This document shows, one piece after another, positions 1,037-60,450 of a stretch of 64,000 bases of DNA. The position numbers and the translations under genes are program-made. The stretch lies in contig OZ024741.1 of assembly GCA_964016885.1 (NCBI GenBank), positions 165,850,001-165,914,000 of the forward strand, in the 5' to 3' direction. The notes below the pieces were generated by a model that had not been told where the DNA came from, did not search any database, and saw nothing but the letters and a program-made list of their open reading frames with translations. Source of the DNA: Eledone cirrhosa. Taxonomy: Eukaryota. How positions within the stretch are numbered: position 1 is the first letter of the stretch; each line of letters starts with the position of its first letter.

Positions 1037-1195
1037 TATATATTTATTTAATGGCTAAATGGTGAGCTTTGTTACTCTGGAGTTTCACCCGGACACTTCC
1101 AGGAATATTGGACAAGTCATCTCATGATCCAGCGAGTACACAGGTGAAACTCCAGAGTAACAAGGCTCACCACTTAGCCATTAAATAAATATATA
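1037..1195. repeat. Palindrome (53-bp arms) mirroring a hammerhead 3' half
   Basis: Arms 1037-1089 and 1143-1195; right arm reads GAAA-CTC-CA-GAG-TA; related copy at 59781-59863. Confidence 0.8.
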
Positions 1196-1419
1196 AACTC
1201 TACTTCGGCATTGAGTACTTTTTCTCACGCCTGTCAAGAATATACACGGGCACGTTAAAATTTAATCATACACTCACACATCTCATGAACACACACACAA
1301 AATATACTTCAACAGACATACAGTACACACAATCAAAATTACATTCACTCACACTTGCATGCCCACTACCACATGGATATACCCATACACACACACTATC
1401 TTTGATACTTTACAAAATT

Positions 1420-1764
1420 CTCTACAATTTTCTTTATGGCCCCATTCCGTCACGAATGACCATGGTTTTGCACCTAGAAAGTTCCCCTCCGAGGCACAAG
1501 TCCAGGCAAGGTTGTTTGTGGGAGACCAGCAGTTACCGATGCATACCAGTCTCCCCTCTCCATGCCAACAATGTTGTCCAAGGGAAAGGCAATGACCGAT
1601 ACAGCTTGGCACCAGTGACGTCGCAACTCATTTCTACAGCTGAGTAAACTGGAGCAACGAAAAATAAAGTGTCTTGCTCAAGGACATAACGCATCACCTG
1701 GTCCGAGAATTGAACTCACAACCTCTCAATTGCAAGCCCAATGCTCTAACCATTAGACATGCGC
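1420..1764 (-). mobile_element. tRNA-derived SINE
   Basis: Minus strand shows A/B-box-like head (TAATGGTTAGAGC...GAGTTCAATTC) then GTCCTTGAGCAAGACACT core; similar copies at 17645-17900 (+), 32760-32905 (-), 42095-42380 (+). Confidence 0.75.
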
Positions 1765-1801
1765 AGGACTTTACAAAATATACCTTTAAAAATCACACGT
1801 A

Positions 1802-2028
1802 TAATCCTTTAATGTTCAAACCGGCCAAAACCAGCCAGAATTCTCTACCTCTTTCTGTTGAAACTGGCTGTAACTGGTCGCTCATACTGATGTTAAGGTA
1901 TTGTTCTCAAAATAAATATTTTCAAAATCTCATAGATTCGATATTATGTGAGATAATTATGTGAGGTAAAGCCTTTACCATGAAAATACGTTAGTATATA
2001 TAGAGTTATGTGAATGCTAAAGGGTTAA
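1802..2028 (+). mobile_element. TTAA-flanked (piggyBac-like) MITE
   Basis: Ends AATGCTAAAGGG-TTAA; same family as 2746-4465, 10700-10926, 25030-25231. Confidence 0.75.
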
Positions 2029-2050
2029 ACATACACTTACACTCATACAT

Positions 2051-56000: not shown

Positions 56001-56785
56001 CGATAGAATTCATTAATTGTTTCTACTTTTGGCACAAGGCCACCAATAACCCAGTGCATTAATTAATAATTATTAATAATGTTATATCGTGCAATGACCA
56101 TACTTGATGACGAGGGGGCAGCCATCATCATCATATATATGTATATGCATATACTATGTGTGTGTGTATATATATATATATTGATACCTCACAATGCGAG
56201 TTTAATATTTTCCATGACCGAGCTCGTTTTACGGTTTACTCGTTTTACAAATCAATTTTCTCCATTGAAATCAATCAAAATATAAATAATCTGTTCCAGC
56301 GAACTAAAAAAAAACACACCCTAAATACATTTTTAGGGGTTTTAAAACAGAAAAGGTCCAGTTACAAAGAAAATGAGAATTATAAGAACATAATAAAAGA
56401 GAATACAAAAGAAATATGTATACTGGTTTTATAAATTGTATGAAACTCACTCGTACTGTGGATTTCCACTCGTACTACAAGAGAAAAATTCGCACAAGCC
56501 TCGGCTCGTACAGCAAATTACTCGTAAATGGGGCACTCGTACTGCGAGGTTCTATGGTATATATACAATCCTGCTATCTTGAATTGCTTCGTGATAGAAG
56601 ACATAAGAATACACATACGACATTAGGTGCATACTTCGAACTTCGAAAAGCAACAAATGCGCGTGTGTGTGTGTGTGGGGGGGGGGGGGGGGGCACACAC
56701 ACACAGCCTGGTGCCTCTCTTCAGATAAAACTTCTTTTGACTTATTGCTAACTACTGCTTTTTAACTGAATTGATAGTAAGTAGG

Positions 56786-56961
56786 CAGTGCTGAATTTAC
56801 CATTGTACTTAGGTCTGCTTAAGCACAGGGTCCCGTTGGCCAGGGAGGGCATCTTCCTGCCCCAAAAATATGTTACGATGAATTTTTCTCCTTCATGGCC
56901 CAAGTAAGGGGCCTCAAAACTTAACTAACACAGGGTCTCATTTCTCCTAAATCCGGCACTG
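56786..56961. mobile_element. hAT MITE
   Basis: TIR CAGTGCYGRATTTA; perfect TSD TAAGTAGG. Confidence 0.85.
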
Positions 56962-59947
56962 TAAGTAGGCCTGAGAATAAGTGATCAATGTTGATTTATT
57001 TAACGCCGTTTATAAATTTATTAAAACAGTGTATCTTAATTAAAGAAACTTGTTTTCTAATTTTATGAGAACTGTAGAGCATAATATGTGACATCATATT
57101 ATGAGGTTATCTACAATAATTAATTGTATGGATGGTGCAATAACAAATTTTTAGATCGTCTGGCGATGTCTATCATCTTCATTTGCATCCGTATCACTTT
57201 CAAAAATAACCTATTAACCTGTTATTTATTTTTAAGCTATGTTATAATGACCCTGTATAGCGCTGTTACGTACATAAGTAGATTTTACGTATTACTCTGT
57301 ATATATATATATATATATAACAAAGGAATTGTGGTAAGGAACCAGATGGACCATAACGCACCAGAGTACTCAATACTTAGGGTAGTAGAGTGGGAAATAG
57401 GAAAAAGTATGACCCCGACGGCAGAGCTCAAGCCGTTTCGACGGCTATTTCTGGACTCAATATATATATATATATATATATATATATATGTGTGTCTGTG
57501 TGTCTGTGTGTGTGTGTGTATGTGTGTGTGTGTGTGTGTGTGTGTGTGTGTGTGCGTGCGTGCGTGCGTGCGTGCGTGTGTGTGTGTGCGTGCGTGCGTG
57601 GCATTGGTTTGGCAGAGTCGTTAAAGCACTGGATAGAATGCTTTGCGGTATTCATTTCAGTTTGAATTCCGCCGCCGTCAACTTTGCCTTTCATCATTTC
57701 GTGATCAATAAAGTACCAGTCTAGTACTGGGATCGATTTTTCTTCATCACAATTATTCCACCCCTCTCTCTCTCTCTCTCTCTCTCTTTCTCTCTGGAAT
57801 TATTCGACTGTCATGCCTGGAAGGATATGTACTCTGTCAGTTTTCGAATCACCATGTGTCGCGACAGAATCTCCAATGAATCTAACATATATTGAAGTCC
57901 CAATGAAGGAATGAAACCAAGAAAGACTTAGGGACTAGATTCCTTTTACCCTTATCTCTCACCCTCACCTCTGCGACTCGACTGCTTCAACACACATCAC
58001 ACCCATGCAACTTCTACTTTCTGGAATCGGATCTATCTTTCCTGAGCCTCCATTCCTCGACTTCAAAAAAAATATAAAAAAATGACGAGACCTAGTCAGG
58101 AGATACCTTATTCTTTATCAGACTTCTCCTCAAATCTCAACTTACTTTCTCCCATGATACCGCACATATCACATCATCTCCAAAATCATGTTTCTAAGTG
58201 TACCTCCTCCAACTTTACTCGACAGATTCTGCAGTATACTGTACACAGATGCGTCCTGTTTGGGCGATGGGTTCCGTTAATATTTACTCGATATCCGTAA
58301 TGACATCTAAGTTCAGTGCTGGTGTGTCAAACGTCTGGCCATTTTCACATTCAGGCTTTTATAGACACGTAGCCCAGTTAAAAACACATTGCCTGCGAGC
58401 CAACGAAGGAGTCACTACGCAGTCGTTCGGCTTGCTATAAATAGCTGTCAAACCTCTTGCAAATTACACTTTACCGTCTTAAAAAGCAAGGACACATTGG
58501 ATAATGTAGTCCCTATATACAAATTACACTTACCGTCTAAAAAAGGAAGGACGCATCGAATAATGTAATCCTATATATACAAAATAACGGATTAATAACG
58601 CTTTTGGTCGTAGGTCTGCTCAATAAAAACCAGCATGGCGTTAAGCAACAGCAAAAGCCTGTCATCAGCTTACATACAGTTTTCATGGTATCATCAAGTT
58701 TAGCGTTTCATGAAATGAAGAGAAAAGAGAGAGACATGTAGACAAAACTTCTATAAACATTTCTGATGTACATTCGAGTTCCTTGCTAACAGGAAGCCCG
58801 AACAGCTCTCAAGCTATTCAGCTTGGACTTTTATGGCATACCTTATGGACACAGACTGAGGCTCACGTGGGTGAGGGTGCATGTTGAAAGACCCGAAACA
58901 CCCAGTAACTCCAGGATACAATACTGATGATGTGCCTATGGTTTTACACCAGTGGGTGTGTGAAGGACTTGTCGGTCGACAAATGTTTAAAGAGTTTAAA
59001 ACCCAGTAGATATGATATTGGAGGCTTTGATGTTGAAATTTCTAACAAGATACGGAGTAAATAATATAGATGAAATTATATATTAAAAGAATATAGAATA
59101 AGGTGCCTGTAAATGATTCAGAATGGTAATGATCTGTCGAAATATGGAATGTAAGTGAGAGTTGGAAGTTATTTGGTTAGAATATATCGTTTGAAGTGAT
59201 GTTTAATTTCAACATGATAGTGTTGGCGAAGAACCGGTTAAATTGAACGTTAGCTAGCTTACTGCCAGTTAGCAATGATTGGTGGTTTGGGGTAGAGACG
59301 CTTATTTTGTTGTTTTTTTGTTGTTTTTTTTGCGTTCTTTTTTTCATAACTGGAAATTCTTTTTTTGTATATGTCTATATATTGGAGAAAAAAAACAAAC
59401 ACTGAATACATATTCTACATGTGTGTTTGTATATCTACACACAAGTGATATGTGTGTGTGTGTGTGTGTGTGTGTGTGTGTGTGTGTGTGTGTGTGTGTG
59501 TGTGTGTGTGTGTGTGTGTGTGTGTGTGTGTGTGTGTGTGTGTGTGTGAGTGTGTGAGTGTGTGTGTGTGTGTGTGTGTGTGTGTGTGTGTGTGTGTGTG
59601 TGTGTGTGTGTGTGTGTGTGATTTATCATTGCTGATTCTGCAGAACGATAAGAATCTGAAAAGTGTATGTTGATTCATATTGACATATCGAACTGTGTAC
59701 TTAATGGCAAAACAACACACACACACACGTATATATATATATATATATATATATATATATATATATATATATATATTCCTTTTATTAAGGCTAAATAGTG
59801 AGTCCTGTTACTCTGGAGTTTCACCTGCTTCTCACAGTGTGAAGCAGGTGAAACCCCAGAGTATTAAAACCTTACATCGGCCGTCAACTACATCCATATA
59901 TATATATATATATATATATATATATATATATATATATATATATATAT

Positions 59948-60325
59948 ACCCCAAGGTCCATAATAAACTCCATCATTAAAGGTCTATCTCTTAGGATTTC
60001 CAGACTTTCAACCTCCATAAGTACATTTAATGCACATGCGGATTAGCACAATGCGGCATTACGGAAAGCTGGTTATGGGGATAGAATAGAGTATATTCCT
60101 AAAACAACAGTTGATCGAGGATATCATCACCAACCGCGGAAACCCTCCATAACTAGGATGACAACATCATGCATCCACCGTCGTAAATTGATATAAATAT
60201 TAACACCACGAACATGAATTCGAGAGCTATTCCGGTTGAAACAATTGATAACTCAAATAAACTCTCTAGCTGGAAAAACGCCCGGAAGATCCCGAAATAG
60301 ATTATACCTATGGTATAATCCTTTT
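59948..60325 (+). pseudogene. Penelope-like element RT C-terminal remnant
   Basis: PRSIINSIIKGLSLRISRLSTS...AALRKAGY...IEY and RSRNRLYLWYNP (cf. RNIIWFNPP motif); starts in (TA)n. Confidence 0.75.
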
Positions 60326-60339
60326 TATTTTATTATTAT

Positions 60340-60450
60340 TCTCTGAAGATTCGTCGACGATAAACATATTGTGAGTGAGTGAATAGAAAAACATATACCT
60401 TTCCAGCTCTGGTAGATGATTAAACAATCGGTGATGAAACACGTGTTAGA
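60340..60450 (+). ncRNA. Type I hammerhead motif with a large stem II insert, directly 3' of the PLE remnant
   Basis: TCT-CTGAAGA-T-TCGTCGA...TCGGTGA-T-GAAA-CACGTG-TT-AGA. Confidence 0.65.

Follow-up and report, generated by a model that had tools for sequence, protein, structure and literature searches.

Penelope-like palindromes in the Eledone cirrhosa genome as probable products of opposite-strand priming and run-off at a capped RNA end

A stretch of 64,000 nucleotides (nt) of the Eledone cirrhosa genome (contig OZ024741.1 of assembly GCA_964016885.1, positions 165,850,001 to 165,914,000; hereafter the window) contains palindromes made of pseudo-long terminal repeats (pLTRs) of Penelope-like elements (PLEs), which turn around near hammerhead ribozymes. 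What sets their inversion point? The first-pass annotation had proposed that the complementary DNA (cDNA) snaps back on a ribozyme helix and primes its own second strand. We favour another reading, to which we assign a probability of roughly 65%: the pLTR palindromes in (TA)n tracts would arise from two primings on opposite strands, run-off of the cDNAs at the capped 5' end of the RNA, and joining of the two.

Self-BLAST with microsatellites masked recovered 12 palindromes in the window, with arm identities of 80-98%. They include all eight that the first-pass annotation, which counted about ten, had located individually; the two best, 50822-51444 and 52903-53245, were absent from it and are centred 213 nt and 73 nt upstream of the hammerhead core, respectively. 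Ten of the 12 belong to hammerhead-bearing pLTR families (B twice, E, A2, F, C, A, G twice and D), and insertion into AT-rich or (TA)n targets was seen in flanks inspected by eye, uncounted. The genome was searched with one arm or tail per family, and 1 Mb of tiles was added as an unselected sample. These 100 tiles of 10 kb held 92 palindromes, compared with none in 40 shuffled tiles; 19 of the 92 come from a single satellite array, 13 match the ten seeds derived from the window, and the remainder represent many other families. We also found a satellite (locus L305:1000-9300) whose units of ~277 nt each contain an imperfect palindrome.

An Rfam scan of the window for hammerheads returned none, only microsatellite and hairpin noise. 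By motif scanning and folding, both arms of the two longest palindromes, and unmirrored copies as well, were seen to carry minimal type I hammerheads, with a CUGANGA or U3-A8 core, G10.1-C11.1, GAAA, UH and stems I and II. The core is of the U3-A8 type in families A and A2, folds of natural copies show a weak stem II in D and J, stem III is real in several families (A, B, D), and the A-type loop II is ~35 nt long and holds the inferred start site discussed below. The earlier identification of these repeats as Penelope-like pLTR fragments with minimal hammerheads was right. Lack of the ribozyme 5' half in unmirrored copies had been named as a sign against the helix model, and the unmirrored copies do supply that half. 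The templates were uncleaved, since the arms read through the hammerhead cleavage site. In the arms of five loci (L125, L126, L135, L074 and L212), stem II is precisely shortened or skipped, which resembles slippage of a reverse transcriptase (RT) across a hairpin base.

The pLTRs of families A3 (locus L289) and J (locus L285) lie downstream of the ends of open reading frames (ORFs) with a possible likeness to a PLE endonuclease, while no ORF was found within the 1.5-kb flanks of A, A2 and B to G. Both ORF ends are 36% identical to protein P0001, in which inspection showed an RT-type YRDD motif; the L289 end has a Pfam GIY-YIG match that is below the cut-off (E=0.0047) and the L285 end has no Pfam GIY-YIG match, and comparisons of the ORF pieces with PDB and Pfam were uninformative. 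By a cysteine motif, the ORFs look Neptune-like. An ORF-bearing head-to-head pair occurs at locus L285, where three 5'-truncated J elements with ORF ends lie within 6 kb (L285:3698-9071), two of them head-to-head and two in the same orientation.

The 5' ends of the arms are the first line of evidence. Junction positions were numbered relative to core nt 3 and mapped onto natural unmirrored copies. In A, A2, A3, B and D, arm ends pile up at a family-specific boundary that is common to unmirrored copies. Mirrored arms end within -1 to +10 of this boundary in 83 of 110 cases in A (1 in the interval -13 to -2), 41 of 53 in A3 (1), 40 of 62 in A2 (3), 35 of 56 in D (0) and 11 of 21 in B (1). Among unmirrored A copies adjoining (TA)n, 203 reverse-strand matches start at +41 to +44, compared with 23 in the 13 nt upstream. 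The A-type boundary is the A within TTAGTY, which is kept in three otherwise unrelated loop II sequences and fits an initiator consensus. Some 60 nt upstream, a CC(A/T)6GG box, a CArG-type motif, is present in 20 of 22 native A-type copies from three families with unrelated neighbouring sequence. TATAAA lies ~30 nt upstream of the boundary in all four native D copies, and upstream of the weak G boundary four of five copies carry an octamer motif; inspection of A, B and D by eye revealed no downstream promoter element. It is thus our inference from sequence that the boundary marks the transcription start and hence the capped RNA 5' end, with predicted start sites at +43 in A, +45 in A2, +42/+46 in A3, -8 in B and -9 to -6 in D. 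Penelope itself has been assigned a start site inside the pLTR (PMC2377424).

The CC(A/T)6GG box stands 17 nt upstream of the hammerhead core in L039, L048, L242, L289 and other native A-type copies. In family F, about five loci (L173, L175, L179, L181 and L184) share one junction, which has a 4-nt loop, lies a long way downstream of the ribozyme and occurs with both tail polarities; it is possibly a second RNA start or end.

The joins at the A boundary carry a second signature. Both arms of family A reach +43 with 0-1 nt between them in 237 loci. By hand count of the first 50 loci listed for each type, +43/+43 joins have an extra C/G in 36, are blunt in 10 and have A/T in 4, whereas +44/+44 joins have an extra C/G in 2 and are blunt in 18 (P=2e-7). 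The native base at this position is T in the native A copies listed, and where both arms have an extra base it is G on the sense strand. This extra G:C pair is likely what a copied 5' cap would leave; an extra G has been read as a cap mark at the 5' junctions of full-length L1 (PMC11702581). A splice acceptor or a weak hairpin at the A boundary was considered and rejected, as neither explains the extra G or the retention of TTAGTY in A2 and A3.

The tails are the third line of evidence and bear on the number of primings. In A, A2, A3, C, D, E, G and J the 3' ends fall at two fixed positions, one that includes a tail of ~40-85 nt and one that lacks it (B is mostly tailed owing to the query), and exactly one arm is tailed in 144 of 157 non-F pairs. 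If a tail-primed first strand were then copied, the tailed arm should be the 5'-longer one in nearly all pairs; it is so in 45 of 102 (P=0.28 against 50:50), or in 40 of 88 when L001-L030, which are biased to long arms, are excluded. In addition, 17 of 161 unpaired tail-less arms adjoin a tail-only piece in inverted orientation that has no sequence in common with them (1-8 of 152-158 at control offsets of 120-500 nt), and one of these units lies in the window at 40049-40161. Family A yielded 188 exact genome-wide matches to such non-overlapping head-to-head units of tail piece and tail-less arm; the partner is tail-less in nine of ten inspected, and about one fifth of 100 listed end at the proximal site by hand count. 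These inverted units require two primings and cannot be made by fold-back.

The arms of a pair share their subfamily segment in 55 of 66 pairs, compared with 23% at random, when classified on a restricted segment that avoids confounding by tail versus TA ends, so both cDNAs come mostly from one source; a few pairs are discordant (L044, L014, L056). Short overlaps and fillers are present at the joins, and fillers at the boundary consist of a short snap-back or re-copying followed by the join to a second full-length arm. Within the tails, a GAG(T/C)(A/G)(C/T)T-type motif lies ~15-25 nt past the proximal start site in six of nine unrelated reference tails (families A, A3, B, C, G and J; for example, window 50718-50793 and 51445-51533) and is possibly a protein recognition site.

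Put together, the favoured mechanism would run as follows. An endonuclease would nick both strands of a TA tract, and RT would begin on one strand at the distal (tail) site and on the other at the proximal site. Because only ~60-200 nt separate these internal start sites from the pLTR transcription start upstream, the cDNAs would run off the capped end. Their ends may often snap back by a few bases or copy the RNA end a second time. The two cDNAs would then anneal or end-join to each other. Overlapping cDNAs would give a palindrome, and a distal cDNA halting within the tail a non-palindromic inversion. A hammerhead would be met near the apex because it sits at or just after the start site.

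The copies in the window on which this reading can be followed are listed below by position in the window.

1037..1240, family B head-to-head unit; tail-less minus arm ending at +22, 30-nt filler, tailed plus arm from -1 onwards, its core (1121) degenerate; tail reaching ~1240
31041..31118, palindrome of family H, assigned to no pLTR family; tail-type GAGTGC motif in the right flank
31590..31912, family E unit; -13/0 join, overlap of 2 nt; tail on the plus arm
32935..33007, minus strand, family D copy, unmirrored; begins at -9, which is the family boundary; hammerhead complete, with its core at 32998
33839..33949, palindrome of a short repeat starting with (CAT)n
34890..35090, family A2 unit; tail on the minus arm (~34890-34965), join in loop II near +45 to +51
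40049..40102, minus strand, tail-only piece of an A-type element, inverted relative to 40103-40161 with no common sequence
40103..40161, plus strand, tail-less A-type arm that begins at the family boundary and is partnered by 40049-40102
40176..40582, family F unit; apex occupied by the entire hammerhead (~40331-40373, plus strand), stem I overlap of 4 nt
49310..49445, plus strand, unmirrored family G copy; minimal hammerhead with its core at 49349
49517..49686, family C unit; arms joined bluntly at +29/+38, between the stem II 3' strand and GAAA; tail on the plus arm
50596..50793, family A unit; arms meet at +44/+47, slightly inside the inferred start site; plus arm with a 76-nt tail
50822..51533, family G unit; complete hammerheads on both arms (50920 minus, 51346 plus); tail on the plus arm
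52812..53245, G-related unit; hammerheads on both arms (53001 minus, 53147 plus); tail on the minus arm
55270..55448, family D unit; tail on the minus arm, plus arm starting at -6
57317..57461, minus strand, family A copy, tailed and unmirrored; begins at the boundary, where G precedes the +43 A; 3' limit approximate
59809..59863, B-like unit whose two arms terminate in loop II; read by hand, outside the mapped set

The two pieces at 40049-40161 form a non-palindromic twin unit with (TA)n on either side. The palindrome at 33839-33949 is presumably a different repeat and not a pLTR; just upstream of it lies a tail-only A-type piece without a partner. Elsewhere in the window, tandem arrays of a 72-nt repeat (4584-5632 and 7406-9076) flank ORF fragments resembling those of RTE-type long interspersed nuclear elements (LINEs) at 6030-7422, more LINE fragments occur at 11525-14035 and 18108-18752, and an ORF fragment at 3479-3964 resembles a Tc1/mariner-type transposase by eye.

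Several points weigh against two primings with capped-end run-off. A sharp boundary is absent from families C, E, F and J, and the one in G is weak (6 of 34 mirrored arms). In A (Kolmogorov-Smirnov P=0.04) and A3 (P=0.012), solo copies differ from mirrored ones in the overall distribution of their ends, as solos hold more long and more short copies. The start site is deduced from sequence, the cap test covers family A only, and (TA)n-adjoining A solos are not clearly G-rich (G 7, C 5, A 3 by hand count). Read mapping gave no locus-level confirmation, since reads of other copies swamp the repeats, and several counts were made by hand from the first 100 entries listed. At an offset of 60 nt, the tail-partner control gave 23 of 160; this control is invalid because the offset falls inside the same partner tails. 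Moreover, among 13 single-tailed A joins of the recurrent +43/+45 to +49 types the tailed arm is longer in 10 by hand count, as is also expected from fold-back of a single cDNA. The high same-subfamily rate fits fold-back equally well, and the recurrent small-loop joins together with the same-source arms also fit full fold-back for some copies.

Fold-back of this kind is the alternative that survives best, and we consider it unlikely. A single cDNA would run off at the capped end, snap back on itself and have its whole second arm copied, with the endonuclease trimming the tail from either arm later; the RNA end would then set the apex, with no helix involved. The recurrent loops of 3-7 nt anchored at +43, the snap-back fillers after +43 and the rare subfamily variants common to both arms agree with it, as does the snap-back of R2 after full-length cDNA synthesis (PMC11371274). 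However, the non-overlapping units of tail-only and tail-less pieces are impossible by this route, and no loop is left in the 237 loci described above. In the fillers, snap-back halts after a few bases and it is the second arm itself that reaches +43/+44, and a few pairs have arms of different subfamilies.

Self-priming on an antisense transcript, proposed from the head-to-head palindromes of Adineta vaga (PMC3846280), appears improbable here: both arms end at sense-strand internal start sites, the promoter motifs and the extra G at the boundary both belong to the sense strand, and non-overlapping units exist. We give a similarly small chance to the multiplication of a few palindromic or pre-truncated non-autonomous masters, from which the junction hot spots would be inherited. 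Some junction types do recur often, and one F junction recurs in ~5 loci, but dozens of types exist per family, and a single type is found with either tail polarity and in more than one subfamily. Short masters that begin at +43 could account for the boundary, yet they would start at a capped end themselves.

A shade less probable still is the model of the first-pass annotation, in which snap-back on stem II or stem I sets the inversion point. Helix-guided snap-back must leave the native loop of that helix at the apex, and this was found in four of 161 mapped junctions (pair L107 counted twice): family C supplies three, on its 10-bp stem II, and family F one, on stem I, namely the copy at 40176. 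The loci behind these junctions are the best-scoring matches to the window queries, and the pairing misses any centre that lies a long way downstream of GAAA; the references are short or from another subfamily in B, D, E, F and part of C, which inflates the 81 joins classed as having an insert of at least 2 nt. The 625 arms of family D were flooded by TA-repeat matches, and 80 were left once those had been dropped. Family C speaks for the helices, as three of its 16 sampled junctions keep the stem II loop, above the expectation from uniform ends (P ~2e-4); genome-wide, by exact patterns that miss mutated copies, its exact snap-back product occurs once (L395) against 64 exact read-through copies. 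In family A, the same kind of search gave no stem II snap-back product, whereas 280 copies read through stem II and 3,293 palindromes have their centre inside loop II. The hairpin used by two A joins does not belong to the ribozyme, and G centres lie up to 213 nt upstream. Ribozyme helices probably guide only a few percent of joins and provide no rule for the inversion point; the helix-guided route exists in family C as a minor route only.

What the earlier annotation said about the mirrored sequence itself is correct: five named copies mirror the hammerhead 3' half, CTGATGA lies at the apex of 55335 and 31590, and the entire ribozyme lies at the apex of the 40176 copy. The CTGATGA at 55389 falls in the unmirrored spacer of 55270-55448 because the plus arm starts at -6. 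The placing of symmetry centres on helices did not stand. Copies 50596, 34966 and 59809 end in loop II, with the native ~35-nt loop missing from the apex of the first two, 49517 is a blunt join, 1037 joins through its filler, and the 40176 copy is the only helix-centred one in the window. Peaks had been expected at stems II and I; the centres are indeed non-uniform, yet they peak off the helices. Short cDNA snap-back does occur, but not with the helices as setters of the inversion point.

An assembly or library fold-back artefact is practically negligible as an explanation: among the reads listed none independently crosses a window apex, but arms differ by up to 20%, tails are asymmetric, flanks are unmirrored, later insertions are nested, junctions vary among thousands of loci, and opposite-strand joints of these families (not locus-specific) occur in Illumina reads of two other samples.

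A more tentative proposal, which we hold slightly less probable than its opposite, is that dual target-primed reverse transcription is obligate for PLEs, with a dimeric RT-endonuclease using two internal sites on opposite strands and, in the promoter-proximal pLTR, both cDNAs ending at the cap in the manner of strong-stop products. If true, it would explain the tail, the inverted pLTRs and the tens of thousands of mini-palindromes, and the junction pile-up of each family would mark its transcription start. RNA from an A-type start inside loop II would lack the ribozyme 5' half, and the ribozyme would thus be switched off in the 5' pLTR.

The inverted pLTR with a tail and its explanation by self-priming are already published (PMC3846280, PMC8557442), and the formation of tandem, inverted and tailed PLE insertions is described as an open question (PMC8557442). 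Within the openly accessible main-text literature on Penelope, we found no proposal of helix-guided fold-back, twin priming or cap run-off for PLEs. The thousands of junctions in this genome discriminate between models and favour two primings with capped-end run-off over ribozyme-guided or antisense self-priming. They also offer direct predictions for the existing in vitro PLE system and, in five families, a predicted start site. Palindromes of every kind, PLE-derived or not, amount to ~70 per Mb and are possible sources of hairpin RNA or instability.

Among known systems, L1 twin priming, reportedly described by Ostertag and Kazazian in 2001, is said to join opposite-strand primings in an inverted junction with short overlaps. 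The Eledone units differ from it in that both primings would occur at set places in the RNA; as the two cDNAs overlap in most cases, a palindrome is the usual outcome. Full-length L1 5' ends share the extra G with the family A boundary (PMC11702581), and R2 shows snap-back at its cDNA ends (PMC11371274). Metazoan PLEs have minimal type I hammerheads with a CUGANGA or U3-A8 core, a long stem II, a short stem I and GAAA...UH, and opposite-strand pairs of them 100-700 bp apart have been noted (PMC4209133); in Eledone, by comparison, A, B and D have a real stem III and the A-types a 35-nt loop II. The subject of a retrozyme preprint (10.64898/2026.07.22.740005), in its accessible part, is tandem arrays. 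For PAc, the Poseidon element of Anolis, both strands are cleaved and extended in vitro, two internal RT starts bracket the tail, uncleaved hammerhead RNA serves as template and the protein is a predicted dimer (PMC11167929). These features agree with our units as read here, whereas the accessible text draws no link to inverted genomic units, a start site or cap copying. Closest of all are the inverted, tailed pLTR insertions of endonuclease-bearing PLEs, which have the same head-to-head 5' truncation, one-end tail, AT-rich or (TA)n targets and pLTR-internal promoter, and which have been attributed to antisense self-priming or endonuclease resolution (PMC3846280, PMC8557442, PMC2377424). Compared with these, the Eledone units measure 100-700 nt and have tails of ~40-85 nt, where published tails are 30-40 nt, and their 5' ends, unlike those in the accessible accounts, pile up at a fixed boundary.

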